Positions 2,610-32,338 of a DNA stretch of 64,000 nt are shown piece after piece. Positions within the stretch are counted from its first letter, which is position 1, and each line of letters starts with the position of its first letter. A program made the translations under genes and the position numbers. Source of the DNA: Eledone cirrhosa. Lineage: Eukaryota. The stretch is from positions 413,168,001 to 413,232,000 of the forward strand of contig OZ024741.1 in NCBI GenBank assembly GCA_964016885.1, written 5' to 3'. The notes below the pieces were generated by a model, which was not told the DNA's origin, did no database searches, and saw only the letters and a program-made list of their open reading frames with translations.

Positions 2610-2670
<61 letters not shown>

Positions 2671-2674
<4 letters not shown>

Positions 2675-2980
2675 ATGTATATATTGTGTATTTTGCAATA
2701 CACTGTATGCTTAATTAAAAGCATTTCGAATACCTTATGCTATTGTTTTAGAGTAGTGATAGACTCACTTACTTTAATTTTCAGCAAACAGGGGAGATAA
2801 TGCTGACAGGGTCCTGTTTCACATTTATTGATGTTATCAAAGCCAACTACTCCTCCTGTTTGCTGAAATCATGGATGTTTGGTTCTTATAGAATTCTAGT
2901 AAATAATCAGGAACTGATTATACAGAGCGGTTGCCGGTCAAGCAGAAATTGAAAATTAGAATCGGTGCTTTGAAATAGCT
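2671..2980 (-). mobile_element. Family A HHR element, one full monomer between (TA)n tracts
   Basis: Closely similar to 3217-3506; carries a partly decayed TTGATAA...GAAA...GTC motif at about 2802-2844 (-). Confidence 0.75.
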
Positions 2981-3088
2981 ATATATATAAAAGAACGATC
3001 GACTTTCGTCAAATCGAACCGAGGGAACAATGTTTCCGTTGGTCTTTCCAATTGCTAATACTATCTATCAGTCGCAACTCCCGGTAGA

Positions 3089-3208
3089 AGGAGCAACGTG
3101 AAATAAAGTGTCTTGCTCAAGGACATAACACATCGCCTGGTCCAGGAATCGAACTCACAACCCTACGATTGCGAATCCAATTCTCTAACCACTCAGCCAC
3201 ACGCGCTC
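3089..3208 (-). mobile_element. tRNA-derived SINE 5' part
   Basis: On the minus strand: A box TGGCTGAGTGG, B box GAGTTCGATTCC, then CCTTGAGCAAGACACTTT, shared with the SINE at 33635. Confidence 0.85.
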
Positions 3209-3213
3209 TCTCT

Positions 3214-3644
3214 ATATATGGATGTATATATAGTGTATTTTGCAATACACTGTATGCTTAATTAAAAGCATTTCGAAGACCTTATGCTATTGATTTAGAG
3301 TAGTGACAGTCTCACTTACTTTAATTTTCAGCAAACAGGGGAGATAAAGCTGACAGGGCCCTGTTTCGCATTTATTGATGCTTATCAAAGCCAACTACTC
3401 CTCCTGTTTGCTGAAATCATGGATGTTTGATTCTTATAGAATTCTAGTAAATAATCAGGAACTGATTATAGAGAACGGTTGCCGGTCAAGCAGAAATTGA
3501 AAATTAAAGTAAGTGAGTCTGTCACTACTCTAAGACAATAGCATAAGGTCTTCGAAATGCTTTTAATTAAGCATACAGTGTATTGCAAAATGCACTATAT
3601 ATACATTCATATATATATAGCTATTTCAGAGCACCAATTCTAAT
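3214..3644. mobile_element. Family A HHR element with fold-back (arms ~3214-3330 / ~3498-3620) plus 24-nt tail
   Basis: The right arm is the reverse complement of the left; the switch occurs at the shared TGAAAATTA; flanked by TA repeats. Confidence 0.8.
3348..3392 (-). ncRNA. Type I hammerhead ribozyme, U3-A8 variant (family A)
   Basis: ggct TTGATAA gcat-caataa-atgc GAAA cagggccct GTC agct. Stems I-III pair; stem I is extended by ttcagcaaacagg/cctgtttgctgaa. Confidence 0.8.
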
Positions 3645-3815
3645 ATATATATAATGTATTTTTAACTCTGATACTGGTTCAGTCTAGTTCAACCGGATTG
3701 GTCTGTCCCAGTCATTCATTGAGCAACATCGGTGAGGTTGGCACCCTTAACTCACGGTTGGGTGTGGATGCATTCATGTATATGTGTGTGTCCGCATGTA
3801 TCTGTGTGCTTCTAA

Positions 3816-3858
<43 letters not shown>

Positions 3859-3864
<6 letters not shown>

Positions 3865-4355
3865 AGATTTGAATGGATACAGTTTAGTTGAAAGGAATTT
3901 ATTGACACGTGTTTCTATAACAGTTACATAACCTAAAACAGCTGCTATCTACAAACTTTTAGTTATGCAGACATTCAATATTTCAATGTTATTATTTACT
4001 GTCATTTCATCAGAATAATATTACTGAGGACCTATTTAGTTTTTATAGAGAATATTCTCTATAAAAACTAAATAGGTCCTCAGTAATATTATTCTGATGA
4101 AATGACAGTAAATAATAACATTGAAATATTGAATGTCTGCATAACTAAAAGTTTGTAGATAGCAGCTGTTTTAGGTTATGTAACTGTTATAGAAACACGT
4201 GTCAATAAATTCCTTTCAACTAAACTGTATCCATTCAAATCTTTCTATTTTTCTCCGGATTACTTTTGGAACTACAACTGGAACCGTCGAGCAAACTCTA
4301 CGTGAGCTGATAATCTACTGTGTGTAATATTTATATTACAACACAACGGAAAATA

Positions 4356-4358
<3 letters not shown>
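3859..4358 (+). mobile_element. Family B HHR element: spacerless 390-bp palindrome (3859-4248) plus 110-nt tail
   Basis: Arms mirror about 4053|4054 with no mismatch found by eye; long (TA)n on both sides. Confidence 0.85.
4089..4208 (+). ncRNA. Type I hammerhead ribozyme with long branched stem II (family B); mirror copy 3899-4018 (-)
   Basis: ttatt CTGATGA a-atgacagt...actgttat-a GAAA c-acgt-GTC aataa; palindromic stem III as in PLE minimal HHRs. Confidence 0.75.
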
Positions 4359-4444
<86 letters not shown>

Positions 4445-4447
4445 CAT

Positions 4448-4495
<48 letters not shown>

Positions 4496-4499
<4 letters not shown>

Positions 4500-5014
4500 G
4501 GAAAAAATGAAACGATATTTCATTTCCCACTCTTAGTACGGCTGTTACTTAAATATAAGTATGTACACGTACATACATATATGTATACCGACGTACAGTA
4601 GTATGTATATATATATATATACATACATGCACACATATATATATGCACGTATGGATTCACCGAACATTTATTATAATGCTCGGTGTGTTTGTAAACAAAC
4701 ATCCCGTATTAAGCCGTAGTGTCTAGCAACCACCGTTTCTCGTTTGTTCAACACTGACAAAGGAACGCTGTACTAGTTTCAAGCCTGTTAGCTATCGTCA
4801 GCAACGTATACCTTCCTGCCAGATTGTTGAACGTATATACTTACCTTATGCTTACCTTATATATATACTTACCTTGTTTACAAACACACCGAGCATTATA
4901 ATAAATGTTCGGTGAATCCATACGTGCATATATATATGTGTGCATGTATGTATATATATATATACATACTACTGTACGTCGGTATACATATATGTATGTA
5001 CGTGTACATACTTA
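4496..5014 (-). mobile_element. Family C HHR element with inverted arm (4874-5014 mirrors ~4553-4699)
   Basis: Homologous to 23961-24587; TA-flanked; small CTTACCTT stutters at the inversion junction. Confidence 0.8.
4766..4806 (-). ncRNA. Minimal type I hammerhead ribozyme (family C)
   Basis: cgttg CTGACGA t-agct-aaca-ggct-t GAAA cta GTA cagcg. Confidence 0.85.
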
Positions 5015-5025
5015 TATATATATAT

Positions 5026-5102
5026 AACGAAGGAAGTTTGGTAATGAACCAGGTGGACCATAACGCACCAGAGTACTCAATACTTAGGGTAGTAGAGTGG
5101 GA
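5026..5102 (-). mobile_element. Family D tail fragment
   Basis: Matches the reverse complement of 10577-10655. Confidence 0.8.
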
Positions 5103-5130
5103 CTTGAACATTTTCCTAATATATATATAT

Positions 5131-5385
5131 AGTAATAATAATAAATGTGAAAACTAAGATCCACGCTCCATATAACGACGTATTATCTGCACTTTTTTCC
5201 GTTCATTGCCAGGGAACGTCTTCACGAACCAAAGTATCGTCTTCCTGTTTTCCTTCGGTTGCAACGTTTTTCGAAATATTTACTTCTGCGTTCACAGATT
5301 CATCTTTTTAGTTTCAGAAGATCCCGTTAAGGGTGAAACAGCGATTCTTTGCTGAAACTTTAATCTGTTATTTTAATAAATGAAT
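5131..5385 (+). mobile_element. TA-flanked island with decayed HHR (core partly deleted)
   Basis: t-ccc-gttaa-ggg-t GAAA cagc at 5322-5342, enclosed by agtttcag/ctgaaact and acagatt/aatctgt; no intact CTGANGA. Confidence 0.45.
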
Positions 5386-5913
5386 ATATATATATATATA
5401 TATAGGGGAGGGTCATATTTGCGTAATATTGCCAGAATTAATAACAGAACACACTCACTGTTTGGTTGGTTTTCGCTTCTCGCTGTCTTTTATATATATG
5501 TATCTGCGATCTAACTTACTCGGTCCTCAATGTTGCCATTGACTGACCGGCGGTCAAAAATAATACAGATACAATATAGACAAACACATATATATATAGT
5601 TTACATAAATCTTTCGTTGCACATCTGCAACATCGTCAGTGGTGTTATATTCATTGTTCCTCCTGTTGTGTTGTATGTCTACGCCATTTTTTTTTTGTTC
5701 AGTCTGTCTATATATTTATTTATTTATTTGCTTGTTTGTTTATCTTATTTTATTTTGTCTTCTTTGCGCATGCGTTTGCGTGTGTGTATAGTGTTATGTG
5801 TGATGTGTGACTAGTGTGTATAGTGTTGTGTCTGCTGGGTGACTAGTGTGTGTTTATGTGCTTGTGTATGTATTTATTTATCTTATTTTATTTAATTTAA
5901 TTTACTTATTTAT

Positions 5914-7806
5914 TTATACTTCTCTTAGGTCAGTGTTGTTTGTTTGGGTGTTGTTGTTGTTCCACTCATTCTTTCTGTTTAGCTTTGGTCTTCTAATTTT
6001 TATTTCACTGGCCTCTCTGATTTGCCTATCTGCTGGGTCATTCCTATGTTTAGATATTATTCTAATTTCTATGTTGTCTATGTTACCGTCATGATGTTGT
6101 CTAGCATGTTCGTATAGTACTGACCCGTTTTTTCGTCCTTTTAGTTCCCCCCAGTGTTGGTCTATCCTTTCACCTATGCTACGAGCTGTCTCACCTATGT
6201 ATGTTGTTGTCGTGTTTCTGCAAGTACCCTCTGTACATCTTATGCTATAGACTACGTTTCTAGTTTTACAGTTTATCCGGGGGTTCACCTTACATATGAT
6301 ACATTTCCTATTGGTACAGTGGGTTTTCTTAAAAGGGTAGGTTTTGCTGATCAGGGATTTTATGGTGGTTCCTGGCTTTTCTACCACCTTTATTTTTAAG
6401 TGGGTCTTTCTCAGGGCCTTTCTACACTGGTTAGCTAATTTCCCTCCAGGGGTGGCGTCCACAAACATGACACTCTGATATCTCTGGTTGTCGTACCATG
6501 ATGTGGCCTTCCCTATCTTATGTCTAGCCCTATCTAAGCTATTCCATGATTTGCTCCTGTATAGTGGGCAAATTCCTTTCATGTCCAGTTCTATGAGGGT
6601 CTTATACTTTTCCATGGCTCCTTCGTATACTCTGACTCTGTCTCTTTGGTTGTAGCCAGAGAACTGCATGCGGTTGATGAAGTGTTGGATGTGTCCTTCC
6701 ATTTCTGTTGGGTCGCACATGCTGGACACATTCTTCATCACTCGTACCAAATCTGCGATCAGAATATTAAACTTAGCACTACTGGACATTGCTGAGTTTT
6801 TGAGTATCAGGTATTTGGAGGCCATGGGTTTAGCATAGTGTGAGTGGAGAATTTGGGCTCTCTCGTCTATAGTGTTAATCCAGAGTTCTGTGTCTAATAC
6901 AGGTAGTCTATTGTTAGGGTGTTTGGAAGGGAAGTCTATAGTTACAGTTATACTCTGGTGTATGGAATTAGCTATCTGCTGGATGCTTTCCATCGTGCTA
7001 CGTTCTAAATCAAACTTGTTAGTGCTCTCTAGTGGGGGTGTTCTTATAACTATATTGATATCGTCTACATAACGAGAGTACATGATGAGGTCTATGGAGC
7101 TATTATTAAGGAGATCTTTAAGACTCCTTTCCCACCATACCATGAAAAGGTTGGCAACATCGCCAGCTATGCTGACGCCGATGGCTGCTCCCTCATTTTG
7201 GGTGTAGATTTTCTCATTGAACTTAAATATGTGGCCCTTTAGGGTAGTTTTGATACTAGCCCCTATTGCATGTGCGACCATTTTTCTTACCTGATCAGTG
7301 TTTTGGGGGGTCCGTATAGCTTTGGTCCACCCAATCCACCTTCCTATGGGAGTCTTTTTAGCCATTGAGGTTATGGTGGGGGGTCTACCTCTTATAGGTC
7401 TACTAGGGCAGAAACATCTAAGGTCATGGCTGTCTAGGTAGTCAGTGTCGTAGGTAAGTCTAAGTAGGAGGCCCAGTTCGTCTGTGTCGACGTCGCAGAA
7501 CTCCACCTCACTCTCAATGATCATCTCCACACATCTTTTCACAGCAAAATCAATGTTAATGGATGGGTACAGTGACACCACATCCATGCTGCCTATTATG
7601 CAGTTGGATAGGCTCCTGTTTTTGTTGCACTCACTGATTCTGCTGAGGAGGTCCTCTGTACTTTCACATACATCTGGGGACATCTTGATTATGGGGCGTA
7701 TAACCATTGAGAGGAAGTAGGAGATCCTGTAGTTGCTAGCTATATTAGCTCCGCATACAGGTCTTGTTGGTGGTCCTATTGTCGGGTCGTCGACTGTCTT
7801 GTGGTC
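5914..7806 (-). CDS. 5'-truncated PLE reverse transcriptase + GIY-YIG endonuclease (Naiad-like, tentative)
   Basis: DHK..GPPTRPVCG, DVVSLYPSI, GAAIG, YSRYVDD, LPVLD, Cx4Cx2C linker, VVY..C..C..YIGET, two His, LNR. No internal stops. The first ~9 aa of the listed ORF come from the opposite arm. Confidence 0.93.
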   Translation of the reverse strand, partial: DHKTVDDPTIGPPTRPVCGANIASNYRISYFLSMVIRPIIKMSPDVCESTEDLLSRISECNKNRSLSNCIIGSMDVVSLYPSINIDFAVKRCVEMIIESEVEFCDVDTDELGLLLRLTYDTDYLDSHDLRCFCPSRPIRGRPPTITSMAKKTPIGRWIGWTKAIRTPQNTDQVRKMVAHAIGASIKTTLKGHIFKFNEKIYTQNEGAAIGVSIAGDVANLFMVWWERSLKDLLNNSSIDLIMYSRYVDDINIVIRTPPLESTNKFDLERSTMESIQQIANSIHQSITVTIDFPSKHPNNRLPVLDTELWINTIDERAQILHSHYAKPMASKYLILKNSAMSSSAKFNILIADLVRVMKNVSSMCDPTEMEGHIQHFINRMQFSGYNQRDRVRVYEGAMEKYKTLIELDMKGICPLYRSKSWNSLDRARHKIGKATSWYDNQRYQSVMFVDATPGGKLANQCRKALRKTHLKIKVVEKPGTTIKSLISKTYPFKKTHCTNRKCIICKVNPRINCKTRNVVYSIRCTEGTCRNTTTTYIGETARSIGERIDQHWGELKGRKNGSVLYEHARQHHDGNIDNIEIRIISKHRNDPADRQIREASEIKIRRPKLNRKNEWNNNNTQTNNTDLREV

Positions 7807-9185
7807 AGGTAAGAAAAATGGTCGCACATGCAATAGGGGCTAGTATCAAAACTACCCTAAAGGGCCACATATTTAAGTTCAATGAGAAAATCTACACCCA
7901 AAATGAGGGAGCAGCCATCGGCGTCAGCATAGCTGGCGATGTTGCCAACCTTTTCATGGTATGGTGGGAAGGGAGACTTAAAGATCTCCTTAATAATAGC
8001 TCCATAGACCTCATCATGTACTCTCGTTATGTAGACGATATCAATATAGTTATAAGAACACCCCCACTAGAGAGCACTAACAAGTTTGATTTAGAACGTA
8101 GCACGATGGAAAGCATCCAGCAGATAGCTAATTCCATACACCAGAGTATAACTGTAACTATAGACTTCCCTTCCAAACACCCTAACAATAGACTACCTGT
8201 ATTAGACACAGAACTCTGGATTAACACTATAGACGAGAGAGCCCAAATTCTCCACTCACACTATGCTAAACCCATGGCCTCCAAATACCTGATACTCAAA
8301 AACTCAGCAATGTCCAGTAGTGCTAAGTTTAATATTCTGATCGCAGATTTGGTACGAGTGATGAAGAATGTGTCCAGCATGTGCGACCCAACAGAAATGG
8401 AAGGACACATCCAACACTTCATCAACCGCATGCAGTTCTCTGGCTACAACCAAAGAGACAGAGTCAGAGTATACGAAGGAGCCATGGAAAAGTATAAGAC
8501 CCTCATAGAACTGGACATGAAAGGAATTTGCCCACTATACAGGAGCAAATCATGGAATAGCTTAGATAGGGCTAGACATAAGATAGGGAAGGCCACATCA
8601 TGGTACGACAACCAGAGATATCAGAGTGTCATGTTTGTGGACGCCACCCCTGGAGGGAAATTAGCTAACCAGTGTAGAAAGGCCCTGAGAAAGACCCACT
8701 TAAAAATAAAGGTGGTAGAAAAGCCAGGAACCACCATAAAATCCCTGATCAGCAAAACCTACCCTTTTAAGAAAACCCACTGTACCAATAGGAAATGTAT
8801 CATATGTAAGGTGAACCCCCGGATAAACTGTAAAACTAGAAACGTAGTCTATAGCATAAGATGTACAGAGGGTACTTGCAGAAACACGACAACAACATAC
8901 ATAGGTGAGACAGCTCGTAGCATAGGTGAAAGGATAGACCAACACTGGGGGGAACTAAAAGGACGAAAAAACGGGTCAGTACTATACGAACATGCTAGAC
9001 AACATCATGACGGTAACATAGACAACATAGAAATTAGAATAATATCTAAACATAGGAATGACCCAGCAGATAGGCAAATCAGAGAGGCCAGTGAAATAAA
9101 AATTAGAAGACCAAAGCTAAACAGAAAGAATGAGTGGAACAACAACAACACCCAAACAAACAACACTGACCTAAGAGAAGTATAA
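7806..9185 (+). CDS. Second, more truncated copy of the same PLE RT-GIY-YIG ORF
   Basis: Identical protein from QVRKMVAH onward except WERSL vs WEGRL; the listed N-terminus is antisense of the spacer. Confidence 0.92.
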   Translation, partial: QVRKMVAHAIGASIKTTLKGHIFKFNEKIYTQNEGAAIGVSIAGDVANLFMVWWEGRLKDLLNNSSIDLIMYSRYVDDINIVIRTPPLESTNKFDLERSTMESIQQIANSIHQSITVTIDFPSKHPNNRLPVLDTELWINTIDERAQILHSHYAKPMASKYLILKNSAMSSSAKFNILIADLVRVMKNVSSMCDPTEMEGHIQHFINRMQFSGYNQRDRVRVYEGAMEKYKTLIELDMKGICPLYRSKSWNSLDRARHKIGKATSWYDNQRYQSVMFVDATPGGKLANQCRKALRKTHLKIKVVEKPGTTIKSLISKTYPFKKTHCTNRKCIICKVNPRINCKTRNVVYSIRCTEGTCRNTTTTYIGETARSIGERIDQHWGELKGRKNGSVLYEHARQHHDGNIDNIEIRIISKHRNDPADRQIREASEIKIRRPKLNRKNEWNNNNTQTNNTDLREV

Positions 9186-9459
9186 ATAAATAAGTAAATT
9201 AAATTAAATAAAATAAGATAAATAAATACATACACAAGCACATAAACACACACTAGTCACCCAGCAGACACAACACTATACACACTAGTCACACATCACA
9301 CATAACACTATACACACACGCAAACGCATGCGCAAAGAAGACAAAATAAAATAAGATAAACAAACAAGCAAATAAATAAATAAATATATAGACAGACTGA
9401 ACAAAAAAAAAAAATGGCGTAGACATACAACACAACAGGAGGAACAATGAATATAACAC

Positions 9460-9497
9460 CACTGACGATGTTGCAGATGTGCAACGAAAGATTTATG
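9460..9497 (+). ncRNA. Minimal HHR-like motif in PLE 3' UTR; mirror copy ~5604-5641 (-)
   Basis: ca CTGACGA t-gttgca-gatg-tgcaac GAAA gat TTA tg. Core and stem II are clear; stem I is only 2 bp. Confidence 0.55.
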
Positions 9498-9764
9498 TAA
9501 ACTATATATATATGTGTTTGTCTATATTGTATCTGTATTATTTTTGACCGCCGGTCAGTCAATGGCAACATTGAGGACCGAGTAAGTTAGATCGCAGATA
9601 CATATATATAAAAGACAGCGAGAAGCGAAAACCAACCAAACAGTGAGTGTGTTCTGTTATTAATTCTGGCAATATTACGCAAATATGACCCTCCCCAAAT
9701 ATAACAATATCTGTTTCGACACACGATTTCATATAAAAAACCTCGCAAAACTAATTCATCGCCG

Positions 9765-9794
<30 letters not shown>

Positions 9795-9799
<5 letters not shown>

Positions 9800-10652
9800 A
9801 GCAAGTAAGACCCCGACGGCTGAGCTCAAGCCGTTTCGATGGCTAATTCTGGACTGAATGAAAATTTATTCTGGTATTTAAATAGCCGAGCTTATCAAGG
9901 GGTAATTCCATATATGGTCAAAGAGATAATCACCAGGATTGGTCACATCACAAGTTAGTAGTAAATCTGTGATGGCAAATTGGTGGGGAAAGGGGTAGCT
10001 AAACCTGCCGGTAGGAGAAATAGGGAGAGGGGGTGGAGTAGACCCATTCATGCGTTGGTAGTGCCGGCTACAGCTGGGCGTGAGGTCAAAGAGGATACTG
10101 AGGAGGGGGAGGGGGAGGAAATCGAAACGGTAAGTAGAACAATGAAGGGTAAAACTATAAAAGGTACTGAGAGAGAAAAAAAATAAGCAAAGTTTGGTTA
10201 CTAAGACTTAAGTCTCTCGCTATTGCTAGGCTAAAGAAATACATAAATAAATAAATAAACTCCCCCTCCCCAGTATCCTCTTTGACCTCACGCCCAGCTG
10301 TAGCCGGCACTACCAACGCATGAATGGGTCTACTCCACCCCCTCTCCCTTTTTCTCCTACCGGCAGGTTTAGCTACCCCTTTCCCCACCAATTTGCCATC
10401 ACAGATTTACTACTAACTTGTGATGTGACCAATCCTGGTGATTATCTCTTTGACCATATATGGAATTACCCCTTGATAAGCTCGGCTATTTAAATACCAG
10501 AATAAATTTTCATTAAGTCCAGAATTAGCCGTCGAAACGGCTTGAGCTCAGCCGTCGGGGTCTTACTTGTTCCTATTACCCACTCTACTACTCTAAGTAT
10601 TGAGTACTTTGGTGCGTTATGGTCCACCTGGTTCCTTACCACATTTCCTTCG

Positions 10653-10655
<3 letters not shown>
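9795..10655 (+). mobile_element. Family D HHR element, longest copy: arms 9795-10111 / 10260-10576, 148-bp spacer, 79-nt tail
   Basis: Inverted arms with about 5 differences; (TA)n on both sides. Confidence 0.88.
10468..10561 (+). ncRNA. Type I hammerhead ribozyme, U3-A8 variant (family D); mirror copy 9810-9903 (-)
   Basis: acccc TTGATAA g-ct-cggcta...tagccg-t-c GAAA cggct-tgagctc-agcc GTC ggggt; predicted cleavage after 10556. Confidence 0.82.
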
Positions 10656-11681: not shown

Positions 11682-13005
<1,324 letters not shown>

Positions 13006-13006
13006 T

Positions 13007-13209
13007 AACAAAGGAATTGTGGTAAGGAACCAAATGGACCATAATGCACCAGAGTATTCAATACTCAGTGTAGTAGAGTAGGAAATAGGAAAAAGTATGA
13101 CCCCGACGGCAGAGCTCAAGCCGTTTCGACGGCTATTTCTGGATTCAGAGTCCAGAAATAGCCGTCGAAACGGCTTGAGCTCTGCCGTCGGGGTCATACC
13201 TTTTCCTAT
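13007..13209 (-). mobile_element. Family D short fold-back copy (tail + ~124-bp palindrome)
   Basis: Palindrome centred near 13147; same two termini as the other D copies. Confidence 0.88.
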
Positions 13210-14249
13210 ATATATATATGTATAAAGTTTTCAGTTCCAGTCATGACAAACCAATAGTTTGGTTGTTCAGTCAAGACAGTCAGAACCTCTACCAAAGCAT
13301 GTGTGAACAAGTGCCTCTGGCCACTGGGCAGTAAATTAATGTCAGTATTTTCTCTGCGACCCTGCCAAAATTAGTGATATATGTGTAGAGAGAAACATAC
13401 AGCACACAGACACAATAAAGAAATATATTGTTAGCTGGTAACAACTACAGTAACACAACAATAATGTGGGAGAGGATAGCAATGTGAAATTATGAAGCTA
13501 AGATAAGTCTAAGAGAATAGAAATAGACTGTAATTTGAAATCAGAGTCACTCAAGGTAGAGCTGTTATTTCTCCAAATTAAGAGATCACAGCTCCGATAT
13601 TATGGGTATGGGGTTAAAATGTCTTACGAAAGAATCGCTGGACAGCGATTCTTATAGGCAAAACCAATTGGCAGGAGACCCAGGGTAGACCCCGAGCTAG
13701 ACGGTTGGATAATATCCAAGAGCTTGGTTGGTATCACTTGGGGATCCAGTCAGAGCAGTAGTAGCTGGTTGCTTTTGACAGGACCCTCTGGAAGGAGTGT
13801 TTGAGGACTCTGCCCCACGAACCTCTGAAAGGAGTGTTTAAGGTCTCTTCCCCCATGACCCTCTCAGGAATAAGTGGGAGAAGAAGAAGGAGGTCTGAAA
13901 CTCATGGATTCAAAAGGACCATTATGTCAAGAGAAGAGGCAGGGCAGGCCAAAAGTGAGATGAGATTTGGTGGGAGACAGAGGGATTTCTACCAGTTACT
14001 CTAATACATGTTCCAGCTGAATGACTGAGGCCATGCTGGGGCACTGACATTTGTTAGAGAGATTCCATTTGTTTGTCCATTTCATTGTATTTCATTGGTA
14101 AATTCTAATAAATGGAATTATACCATTGATATTATTGAAGCAAAGAAAATACAATTGTTCTGCCAGGGACGTTAGTAAAGTAATTTGCTGGCTGTGGGCG
14201 GGAGCACATGTCTTTAATACATCATGAAAATGATATTAATAATAATAAA

Positions 14250-21381: not shown

Positions 21382-21820
21382 ATCATCATCATCATCGTTT
21401 AACGTCCATCTTCCACAGTTGCATGGGTTTGGACGGGAATTTTCCCATTTGAGGCAAGATTGGTTGTCTTGCTCGTATAGGACTGTCTGGCGGGTTTTCT
21501 ACGGCTGGATATTCTTCCTAACACCAACCACGTTTACAGTGTGGACTGGGAGGTTTTTACCGTGTTACCTACACGGCCACATTACAGTGGGGACTGTGTT
21601 TTTTTGCCGTGACACCTACACGACCTCATTTGTTTCGGACTGGATGTTGTGGTACCAACATAACTTTACATTGAAAGGGGTGGTGTGGATGGGGTGGGGG
21701 TAGTGGGGCAGGGGGTGTTTTTGTTAGAGGTGCCTACTGACTGTAGGTTTCGCTTTGTACTTAGGCAAGGCGGGTCTTCTGTATTACTGTGTAGCGCCAA
21801 AGATCTCGGTTCAGTGACAT
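21382..21820 (-). mobile_element. SINE-like element with RTE-type 3' tail ending (GAT)n
   Basis: Ends GGACGTTAAACGATGATGATG; homologous to 33215-33608. Confidence 0.75.
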
Positions 21821-21846
21821 TTATATATATATATATATATATATAT

Positions 21847-21980
21847 AATGAAGGAAATGTGGTAAGGAACCAGGTGGACCATAACACACCAAAGTACTCA
21901 ATACTTAGGGTAGTAGAGTGGGTAATAGGAACGAGTAGGACCCCGACGGCTGAGCTCAAGCCGTCGGGGTCCTGCTCGTT

Positions 21981-21985
<5 letters not shown>
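21847..21985 (-). mobile_element. Family D shortest fold-back copy
   Basis: Tail plus 60-bp palindrome turning inside the stem III hairpin (GGCTGAGCTCAAGCC). Confidence 0.88.
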
Positions 21986-22168: not shown

Positions 22169-23212
22169 TCATCATCATCATCATCATCATCATTTTACGC
22201 CCGCTTTTCCCTGCTTGCACAACATCTCTCCACTTGTCACGGTCCTTCGTCATCTCCACTGTGAGCTTCAGCGATGTGATGTCTGTTCTCACCACCTCTG
22301 CCCATGTTTTTCGTGGTCTACCTCTACCACGTCTTCCCTCAACTGTCATTTCCTGGCACTTCTTCACCCATCGGTCATCCTCCATGCGCATCACATGTCC
22401 ATACCACCTCTGTCTCCTCTCTCGCACACTACATTCTATCCCATTCAGACACAGTTTCTCTCTCAACACATTCATGCTGGGTCATTCACACACATTTACA
22501 TTGCACATCCAACGGAGCATGCTTGCCTCATTTCTCTCCAGCCGTCGCATATCCTCTTAAGTTGCTGCCCATGTCTCACTACCATGCAGCATCGCACTCC
22601 TCACACAGGCATCATATAACCGGCCTTTCGTACGCAGGGAGAAACCCTTCTTCGTCAGCAGAGGAAGCAGCTCCCTAAACTTCTTCCAACCCGTCCTTAT
22701 TCTAGATACTATGGCCTCGGAACAGCCCCCCTCCCATGCTAATCTAATCTCCTAGGTACCGGAAGCTATCCACCACTTCTATAACAGCCGCTTGCACTTG
22801 AAAAATGTGTCTATCAATGCGACTACTGTCTAATTTCCCTGTACATCTACTGCATACATATTTCTCCCTACCTTTTAGTTTGCCTGCTATCCCGCTACAT
22901 CTCTTGTGTACCCAGGATCTGCATTATGTGCATTTTATAGAATTTATGCCAGTTCCTTTTCTGCATATCGAACAATGCCATTTCCCTGACGGAATCAGAG
23001 TTTTGTCCTCTTTTCTACTCATGAACACTTTTGTCTTAACTAGGTTCTCTCTCAGTCCTCTTGCTTCCAATTGGTGTTTCCATAGCCAGAATTTATTCTC
23101 TAGCTCCGCTACTGATTCTGCTATAAGAACCAGATCGTCAGTATAGAGAATTTCCCATGGGCAGCCAGTCTTAAACTCCTCTATTATGGTTTGGAGGACT
23201 ATAATGAACAAT
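22167..23212 (-). mobile_element. 5'-truncated RTE-clade LINE (decayed RT C-terminus)
   Basis: [47 protein letters not shown]; very short 3' UTR and (GAT)n tail. Confidence 0.92.
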
Positions 23213-23230
23213 CTATATATATATATATAT

Positions 23231-23427
23231 AACGAAGGAAATGTGGTAAGGAACCAGGTGGACCATAACGCACCAAAGTACTCAATACTTGAGGTAGTAG
23301 AGTGGGTAATAGGAACCAGTAAGACCCCGACAGCTGAGCTCAAGCCGTTTCGACGGCTAATTCTGGAGTCCAGAATTAGCCGTCGAAACGGCTTGAGCTC
23401 AGCTGTCGGGGTCTTACTGGTTCCTAT
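23231..23427 (-). mobile_element. Family D short fold-back copy
   Basis: Tail plus palindrome centred on CTGGA-G-TCCAG (~23368). Confidence 0.9.
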
Positions 23428-23448
23428 ATATATATATATATATATATA

Positions 23449-23707
23449 TAAAGAATTAGTACATCTACCAACATATATATACAGATGCATACCTATGCTA
23501 GCAAATATATAGGTTTTGTCTTAGTAACTTTGTGGTTCAATACAAGGGGATGTCAGGTATCTTAGCTGAGAACATACTTCCTGATGACGAAACGGCTTCT
23601 CCATGCTTTCCATTTGGAAACCATGTTTATTCCCTTTCAGAAACTAATTAGTTGGAGTGAAATTTTAGTAAGTAAGTTAAATTTTATAATTTTCTTATTT
23701 TACGTCA

Positions 23708-23710: not shown

Positions 23711-23756
<46 letters not shown>

Positions 23757-23761
<5 letters not shown>

Positions 23762-23946
23762 AACCAGTAAGACCCCGACAGCTGAGCTCAAGCCGTTTCG
23801 ACGGCTAATTCCAGAATTAGCCGTCGAAACGGCTTGAGCTCAGCTGTCGGGGTCTTACTGGTTCCTATTACCCACTCTACTACCTCAAGTATTGAGTACT
23901 TTGGTGCGTTATGGTCCACCTGGTTCCTTACCACACTTCCTTCGTT
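23757..23946 (+). mobile_element. Family D short fold-back copy
   Basis: Palindrome centred near 23812 plus 79-nt tail; same variants as the 23231 copy. Confidence 0.9.
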
Positions 23947-23960
23947 ATATATATATATAT

Positions 23961-24587
23961 AAATGGAAAAAATGAAACGAAATTTCATTTCTCACTCTTA
24001 GTACGGCTGTTACTTAAATATAAGTATGTATGTGTACATTGTACATACATATATGTATACAGACGTACAGTAGTATGTATATATATACATACATGCACAC
24101 ATATATGTATGTACGTATGGATTTACCGAACATTTATTATAATGCTCGGTTTGTTTGTAAACAAACATCCCGAATTAAGCCATACAGTGTTTAGCAACCA
24201 TCGTTGCCCTTTTGTTCAACACTGACAAAGGAACGATGTACTAGTTTCAAGCTCATTAGCTATCGTCAGCACCGTATACTTTCCTGCCAGATGATTGAAC
24301 GTCTGAAAGTATATACTTTCCTTATGCATATTAACGGCTGAGCAGCCTAATTTGCATCTCGAGTGAGTTAATCGGCCGGGCGCACCGAAAACGATAAATG
24401 GAAAAAATGAAACGAAATTTCATTTCTCACTCTTAGTACGGCTGTTACTTAAATATAAGTACATACATGCACACACATATATATATATGTACGTATGGAT
24501 TTACCGAACATTTATTATAATGCTCGGTTTGTTTGTAAACAAACATCCCGAATTAAGCCGTACAGTGTTTAGCAACCATAGTTGCCC
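23961..24587 (-). mobile_element. Family C element, ~1.4 head-to-tail monomers (period 435 nt); HHR at 24234-24274
   Basis: AAATGGAAAAAATGAAACGAAATTTC at 23961 and 24396; cggtg CTGACGA t-agct-aatg-agct-t GAAA cta GTA catcg. Confidence 0.85.
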
Positions 24588-31900: not shown

Positions 31901-32149
31901 TCACGGTGGTTTAAATCTCATAAATTTAGTACCAATCCTATGCCTGCAGAAAATTGACTTTTCTATTTTGCTGTTAAGCAGCATTTTATCGTACCTTAAG
32001 ATATGTAGCAATTCAAGGTTGCAGAGCCCGCAATGGGACATACTGCTGCTATAGGCCTTTGCGGCCGCTAATTTCGACCAGCTAATATTGTAATCAAGTT
32101 TTTTGTCCTTAAGTTGCCAGATTTTATTGGTAAGGGTTGTGGAATTCAC
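31901..32149 (-). CDS. C-terminal fragment of PLE GIY-YIG endonuclease
   Basis: NSTTL..IW.LKD...YNI.W......AY....CGLC.LE...IL.....LLN......CRH pattern with CxxC..CxH. Confidence 0.75.
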   Translation of the reverse strand: MNSTTLTNKIWQLKDKKLDYNISWSKLAAAKAYSSSMSHCGLCNLELLHILRYDKMLLNSKIEKSIFCRHRIGTKFMRFKPP

Positions 32150-32338
32150 CAGTGCACGGTTCCAGTTACACCAGTCCAGCCTCCTGTTATTTCATAATAA
32201 TTAACTCTGTACTTGCACCACCAACAATACAAACGAAGACGTGTGAGTTGCAGTACGTCGAGTGCTCTCCCTAATATTACATCAAGGTTGACCATACGGA
32301 ATGACCAGTTCTATCCAGTGGTGAACCAACAAACCTAA

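Follow-up and report, generated by a model that had tools for sequence, protein, structure and literature searches.

Candidate type I hammerhead ribozymes with a U3-A8 core in two unrelated mobile element families of Eledone cirrhosa

Introduction

The canonical hammerhead core, CUGANGA, contains a C3-G8 pair. A 64-kb stretch of the Eledone cirrhosa genome (coordinates 413168001-413232000 of contig OZ024741.1, in the 3.0-Gb assembly GCA_964016885.1; hereafter the window) carries motifs in two mobile element families, named here A and D, in which TTGATAA stands where this core is expected. A previous sequence-only reading of the window had proposed that they are functional variant ribozymes of independent origin, with U3-A8 as the compensatory alternative to C3-G8. 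The locus thus raises the questions of whether these motifs are hammerheads, how their cores arose, and whether they would cleave. Our analysis suggests, with a probability of roughly 0.7, that the A and D motifs, using U3-A8 in place of C3-G8, cleave after C17 and process the tandem transcripts of their elements.

The U3-A8 pair itself is not new. Its covariation was described in several natural hammerheads and had earlier been shown to be active in vitro (Perreault 2011, PMC3088659), and the Penelope elements of Schistosoma have U3-A8, with about 1,300 matches (Cervera and de la Pena 2014, PMC4209133). Fig. S3 of the latter study lists UUGAUAAA and UUGAAAAA, and the study gives the Penelope hammerhead consensus as CUGANGAH and describes Penelope motifs of low activity. 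Families A and D are new members of this published core variant.

Hammerhead motifs in the window

The window was scanned with a type I hammerhead descriptor in which positions 3, 7 and 8 were left unconstrained. Four sites were found, of which three survived a strict filter (Watson-Crick 3-8 pair, at least 4 bp in each of stems I and III), all with the core TTGATAA:

Core at 3388, minus strand: C17 at 3352, family A
Core at 9898, minus strand: C17 at 9815, family D, inverted arm
Core at 10473, plus strand: C17 at 10556, family D, main arm

In 30 dinucleotide shuffles of bases 1-34000, a region of nested mobile elements whose target is (TA)n, the strict filter left a mean of 0.07 matches (0.4 with the loose one). 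The core locations and the cleavage sites predicted by the sequence-only reading, between 3352 and 3351 and after 10556, were recovered at the same positions, and a CUGANGA search does miss the motifs of both families. Both belong to type I, as three helices surround the core and the open ends lie in stem I. The residues U4 G5 A6, A9, G12 A13 A14, the pair A15.1-U16.1 and H17 are complete in the motifs of both families, and the Watson-Crick 3-8 pair is U-A in the window copies.

Family A, a retrozyme-like element with C3-G8 sisters

The features of family A in the window are as follows:

3348..3392, minus strand: type I hammerhead, predicted cleavage after C17 at 3352
3392-3389 with 3351-3348, minus strand: its stem I, 4 bp; core TTGATAA at 3388-3382
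3381-3368, minus strand: stem II, 4 bp with a 6-nt loop; GAAA at 3367-3364; palindromic stem III at 3363-3354
3213..3645, minus strand: the insertion, with a partial retrozyme-like monomer of ~319 nt (3213-3506) and an inverted arm (3498-3645)
2666..2980, minus strand: second, decayed copy, core at 2834-2840 intact, G10.1 deleted, stems II and III mutated

The insertion is TA-rich at both ends and its hammerhead is closed by a 14-bp outer helix. Family A is a non-coding monomer of ~319 nt that occurs singly, as inverted pairs and in tandem, many copies being single or inverted pairs rather than tandem. The tandem units have a period of 319 nt, with one type I hammerhead each and no open reading frame (ORF), as is characteristic of non-LTR retrozymes, whose tandem monomers measure 150-400 nt. 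Preferred ends lie ~133 nt (14/87) and ~167 nt (9/87) beyond the cut site, and the monomer folded as a circle is predicted to be well paired (z -3.8). The 6-nt loop II and the bulged stem I presumably resemble the Schistosoma type.

When the core was left free and the flanks were required to be exact, 283 copies of family A were found in the genome. A hand count of the first 100 listed gave TTGATAA in 92, U3 in 100, A8 in 99 and C3-G8 in none. The pairs of stems II and III vary among A subfamilies around an unchanged core.

Family A has homologous sister families whose monomers measure 310-312 nt. The superfamily motif has 17,666 exact genome matches, mostly in arrays of family B with units of 310-311 nt. 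Family B is homologous to A along the whole monomer (68% over 464 columns), and family C, with 1,955 first-look candidates in the genome, is nearer (69-74% identical). In the loci examined, the core was U3-A8 in 66/66 A copies, C3-G8 in 20/20 distinct B rows and CTGATGA in 22/25 C copies (table of 99 rows, after removal of 8 false pattern matches). An alignment of 45 hand-picked intact rows (20 A, 15 C and 10 B) had 94.8% of its cells paired, compared with 34-45% in slid controls, and two-sided changes at 18 of 27 pairs. At the 3-8 pair it contained 25 C-G, 20 U-A and no mismatch, a count that reflects the hand choice of rows. The hammerhead residues named above, from U4 to H17, were invariant in it except at position 17. 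In a tree of 31 copies with positions 3 and 8 masked, which has a midpoint root only, the U3-A8 copies formed one clade (100/100).

Since the sister families B and C carry C3-G8, positions 3 and 8 covary in the superfamily of A. Judged from these alignments and the tree, the U3-A8 of family A is a true compensatory change relative to C3-G8, made in one event. Positions 10.1-11.1 are A-U or U.U in the C3-G8 sisters, whose stem III is short, and G-C in family A, whose stem III comprises 5 bp; from these three families, the stronger helices of A may offset a weaker core pair. The family B arrays consist of near-identical, retrozyme-like units, often head-to-head, many with U.U at 10.1-11.1 (e.g. 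locus L076, 5135-6501).

The best match between A and D is 11 nt long (E 0.066), and by this comparison the two families are unrelated, as the sequence-only reading had stated. Descent of both cores from a common one is ruled out by the same comparison and by the core states and tree of the A superfamily. Family A had no sequence match in three Penelope-like families, to which this comparison was limited. The possibility that A is the pseudo-long terminal repeat (pLTR) of an adjoining GIY-YIG fragment (locus L064) was also rejected, A sequence being present in 0/10 copies of that element.

Family D, the pLTR hammerhead of a Penelope-like element

Family D is represented in the window by the following features:

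10468..10561, plus strand: type I hammerhead with a 5-bp stem I and a predicted cut after C17 (10556)
10473-10479, plus strand: its core TTGATAA; GAAA at 10534-10537; near-palindromic stem III at 10538-10554
10260..10653, plus strand: main arm, formed by the pLTR of a Penelope-like element truncated at its 5' end, stopping 97 nt past the cleavage site at (TA)n
9795..10259, minus strand: inverted arm, with the mirror hammerhead 9810-9903, core 9898-9892 and C17 9815
21819-21985, 23211-23450 and 23734-23964, no strand assigned: short hairpin-shaped D-type insertions with the hammerhead 3' half and tail only
12990-13224: fourth short insertion; 4985-5102: D-type fragment

Stem II of D consists of a single G10.1-C11.1 pair, a 2x1 internal loop, 6 bp and a loop of ~37 nt. 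The inverted arm stops ~17 nt past the cleavage site, also at (TA)n, and its mirror hammerhead belongs to the insertion of the main arm and is not independent of it.

A D element with an ORF between two pLTRs was found in locus L061, with pLTRs at 2737-3235 and 6276-6731, copies 3.5 kb apart, and an ORF at 3300-5474. The element ends in (TA)n. Its ORF is frameshifted, and reverse transcriptase and GIY-YIG motifs are visible in the translation. A Pfam search with the D ORF gave no match, and a PDB search with a related ORF gave weak WD40 matches only; the Atlas neighbours of the D ORF at 0.94-0.96 include RVT_1 and GIY-YIG clusters. This sequence evidence places the family D hammerhead in the pLTR of a presumably autonomous, Penelope-like retroelement.

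Two D-type tail motifs have 16,378 and 11,975 exact genome matches, the majority of these copies being short hairpins that lack the hammerhead 5' half. Relative to the cut site, D ends lie at +97 in 99/297 cases and at +17 in 93/297. Over 90% of D-type insertions seen in the window and in loci L180-L289 are hairpins of ~200 nt, whose two arms end at +17 and +97 and meet within the hammerhead 3' half, a geometry that looks as if reverse transcription had been primed from both target strands.

At 10527-10542 of the window, the 3' arm of stem II and the 5' arm of stem III of D can also pair with each other over GAAA, in competition with the hammerhead fold. This hairpin is kept in the three D lineages described below (D1, D2 and D3), and it is a possible conformational switch.

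Core variants and history of family D

With the core left free, cores were counted by hand in the first 100 listed copies of each D lineage; the listings start from the beginning of contig 1, and the two arms of a single insertion can both appear in them.

D1 (599 copies): TTGATAA 46, TTGAGAA 48, others 6
D2 (1,252 copies): CTGAGAA 62, TTGAGAA 30, others 8
D3 (2,041 copies): TTGAAAA 35, TTGACAA 30, CTGAGAA 12, TTGATAA 3, TTGAGAA 2, others 18

TTGATAA, whose conservation across genomic copies the sequence-only reading had proposed to check, stands in 92/100 listed copies of A, 46/100 of D1 and 3/100 of D3. C3-G8 is found in 0/100 listed A copies and G8 in 0/300 listed D copies. Among these 300 D copies, 299 have A8 and 82 have C3. 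C3 stands opposite A8 in 66/100 listed D2 and 15/100 listed D3 copies, and the CTGAGAA relatives of D have no Watson-Crick 3-8 pair. The view of U3-A8 as a simple replacement of C3-G8 is thus borne out by A and its sisters and is too simple for D, which lacks G8 in the listed copies and has whole transposing lineages in which C3 faces A8.

All four letters occur at position 7 in D. Among the C3 copies it is G in 65/66 (D2) and 12/15 (D3), and it becomes A, C or U as a lineage state only after U3. An 8-nt or G8 ancestor of the D core was looked for without success, as neither form occurs in the 142 cores examined or in the 300 listed copies.

In a first tree of D (52 of 82 rows, without D3), CTGAGAA lay within TTGAGAA, as if C3 were derived from U3. 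Addition of D3 and an ORF tree reversed this order. In the tree with D3 (84 of 118 rows; positions 3, 7 and 8 masked; bootstrap not settled), CTGAGAA forms a grade in which the window subfamily is nested. The independent ORF tree (1.1 kb, 21 D copies) places U3 in two clades and rejects a single U3 clade (approximately unbiased test, p-AU 5e-32). Its midpoint root falls among CTGAGAA copies, and distant outgroups do not fix the root. Both trees have CTGAGAA on the backbone between two U3 clades, which indicates that C3 changed to U3 on an A8 background at least once under any root, and probably twice. Pairwise differences range from 0.022 in the youngest group, the TTGATAA copies of D1 (n=4), to 0.166 in the oldest, the CTGAGAA copies of D3 (n=3, one truncated).

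The core and stems of D were compared with the rest of the motif in six lineages (69 copies), with positions 3 and 7 excluded because they define the groups. Only 3 of 55 core and stem columns had changed, compared with 51 of 114 in loop II and flanks (p 5e-8); for the 5' half of the motif the numbers were 1/19 and 47/102 (p 6e-4). The 11 other core columns show no change between D lineages. The helices are conserved rather than covarying. Conservation of core and stems across the six lineages indicates that the motif was under constraint throughout the CTGAGAA stage. Given the absence of G8 in the 300 listed copies and the CTGAGAA backbone, the window subfamily of D likely gained U3-A8 from a CTGAGAA ancestor whose core was mismatched or slipped, rather than straight from C3-G8.

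How CUGAGAA was read at that stage can be explained in several ways. It may have been read in the normal register, its C3.A8 mismatch being tolerated and its G7 inherited without being a partner of C3, an explanation to which we give somewhat less than an even chance. Every C3 copy belongs to one continuous lineage, so the link between C3 and G7 amounts to a single event and is not significant; the C3 path is short (~0.05 changes per ORF site), so that chance would often leave position 7 unchanged; and no 8-nt ancestral core was seen among the 142. Against a mismatch speak the generally low activity of core single mutants (PMC9901934) and the near-constant G7 of the C3 copies, with other letters at position 7 following only after U3. 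These last observations would suit a more doubtful interpretation, in which CUGAGAA is an active hammerhead without position 7 and the G that pairs with C3 comes one position too soon. The next two A's might then be A9 and the extra base typical of Penelope hammerheads, since the sequence fits their consensus CUGANGAH minus one base (PMC4209133), and a single C3U change could tentatively have re-registered the core to U3-A8 and freed position 7, twice in this genome. The single-lineage origin of the C3-G7 link weighs against it. A third reading of CUGAGAA is that it gives no useful cleavage. The sequence-only reading had predicted that the U3C mutation abolishes activity; with transposing D lineages that have C3 opposite A8, this prediction may fail in D when position 7 is G.

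Folding and proposed activity

From sequence, structure potential and selection we infer cleavage of the A and D motifs, and for A circularisation and mobilisation in trans. In the proposed mechanism, U3 would pair with A8, and the 2'-OH of residue 8 would be held at the scissile bond as with C3-G8. Cutting after C17 would free unit-length RNA, and the ~319-nt A monomer would circularise and then be inserted at (TA)n in trans by a Penelope-type enzyme. Cleavage is predicted to be slow and helped by dimerisation or protein. The stem III self-duplexes are strong (-24 and -28 kcal/mol), which fits the dimer mode of metazoan type I motifs (PMC4209133). Compared with shuffles, A folds better (z -6.1) and D no better (z -0.9).

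Several points weigh against this proposal. The hammerhead lies above the predicted minimum-energy fold by 4.4 (A), 2.6 (D) and 3.0 kcal/mol (D mirror), and stems I and III of A have an ensemble probability of ~0. No autonomous partner of A was found. The D insertions extend through the cleavage site, and no pile-up of 5' ends at this site was seen by eye in 30 loci, without a formal count. The D lineages with C3 and A8 have transposed to hundreds of copies, and conservation within one young family reflects descent, not selection. In a deep-mutagenesis set, rescue was limited to the G3-C8 swap, the other core double mutants being low (Roberts 2023, PMC9901934). A Penelope hammerhead depended on protein, and insertion in vitro did not require that it cleaved (Frangieh 2024, PMC11167929). 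A search for RNA runs containing the motifs listed none; three sequencing runs of one sample cover the region as contigs, which carry no information on RNA ends or activity.

The read-through, the frequent C3 opposite A8 in D2 and D3 and the dispensability of cleavage in vitro would also agree with the hammerhead fold being, chiefly in D, a structural signal for protein binding or as a reverse transcription template, with cleavage negligible or dispensable and U3-A8 and C3.A8 near-neutral. The hairpin that conceals GAAA in D and the success of Naiad elements without canonical hammerheads (Craig 2021) point the same way. We nevertheless regard this explanation as unlikely, in view of the constancy of the 11 other core columns and the 5' half between D lineages, the gain of U3 on an A8 background and the exact two-sided 3-8 change in A. 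Far less probable still is that the motifs match by chance or are canonical hammerheads that decayed through two neutral changes. The heptamer YTGANRA alone does occur at chance level (72 observed, 72 expected), and an Rfam scan of the window listed no hammerhead among 84 matches; a scan with the canonical C3-G8 sisters gave none either among the 150 listed of 231 matches, the matches being microsatellite-driven microRNA models only. The excess of strict descriptor sites over shuffles, the covariation of A with its sisters and the selection among D lineages are contrary to chance or decay, which is refuted by the fixation of U3-A8 in hundreds to thousands of copies.

Other elements in and near the window

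Further Penelope-like and hammerhead candidates were observed, together with a satellite:

3859-4248: perfect 390-bp palindrome with two mirrored canonical CTGATGA hammerhead candidates, at 4094 (plus strand) and 4013 (minus strand), with a 5-bp stem I, a loop II of ~80 nt and a palindromic stem III
5397-9703: third Penelope-like element, a large inverted pair, with ORFs at 5914-7839 (minus strand, 641 amino acids, weak RVT_1 match) and 7749-9185 (plus strand), and candidate motifs with a canonical C3-G8 core and an extra base at 9462 (plus strand) and 5633-5639 (minus strand)
31907-32161, minus strand: GIY-YIG fragment from a further Penelope-like family, sharing 36% identity with the D endonuclease
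35258-64000: 32-bp satellite filling the second half of the window, ~846 copies

Outside the window, a Penelope-like family E has an ORF of 727 amino acids, 45% identical to that of D. Its pLTR contains a hammerhead candidate with C at position 4 (CCGATGA) and a loop II of ~75 nt, at 1233 and 4684 of locus L065 and also in L066, L069 and L073, alike in the four loci.

Significance

These results confirm a known blind spot, in that searches for CUGANGA count too few hammerheads and miss thousands of copies in this genome. They also provide a series of natural variants within a single genome, with homologous retrozymes that carry either C3-G8 or U3-A8 and with a retroelement lineage whose nearly constant scaffold holds CUGAGAA, UUGAGAA, UUGAAAA, UUGACAA and UUGAUAA. 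The series makes it testable how a catalytic core pair switches while avoiding an inactive intermediate, and whether ribozyme cutting is needed by Penelope elements at all. If the slipped register were true, the genome would preserve a link that joins the C-G form of a catalytic core pair to its U-A form.

Comparison with known systems

No report of a U3-A8 retrozyme was found in a literature search that left most subscription papers outside its coverage, which is weak evidence of novelty. With the same coverage, no report was found of a natural CUGAGAA core, including among the motifs of Fig. S3 of PMC4209133.

Like metazoan non-LTR retrozymes (Cervera and de la Pena 2020, PMC7229834; Li 2026, 10.64898/2026.07.22.740005), family A consists of non-coding tandem monomers of 310-320 nt with one type I hammerhead each, a 4-bp stem II with a 6-nt loop, a palindromic stem III and a well-paired circular fold. 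It differs from them in its U3-A8 core.

Family D is similar to Cercyon of Schistosoma mansoni (PMC4209133) in that its type I hammerhead lies in the pLTR of a Penelope-like element, has a U3-A8 core, escapes the CUGANGA descriptor and forms inverted copy pairs. It differs from Cercyon in that its stem III is complete at 6 bp, its loop II is long and no additional base separates positions 9 and 10.1, and in its CUGAGAA lineages, whose core is absent from the motifs of Fig. S3. With the Anolis Poseidon element PAc (PMC11167929), D shares the pLTR-ORF-pLTR structure, AT-rich targets, a C-terminal GIY-YIG domain that is putative in D, and fixed tails past the hammerhead; PAc, however, has C3-G8 and a hammerhead that overlaps the ORF start, whereas the D cut site lies ~220 nt before the ATG. 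The natural 3/8 covariation is the same as in the variants of Perreault 2011 (PMC3088659). In contrast to that study, a single genome here contains homologous sister families with U3-A8 and with C3-G8, which allows the change to be placed on a tree.

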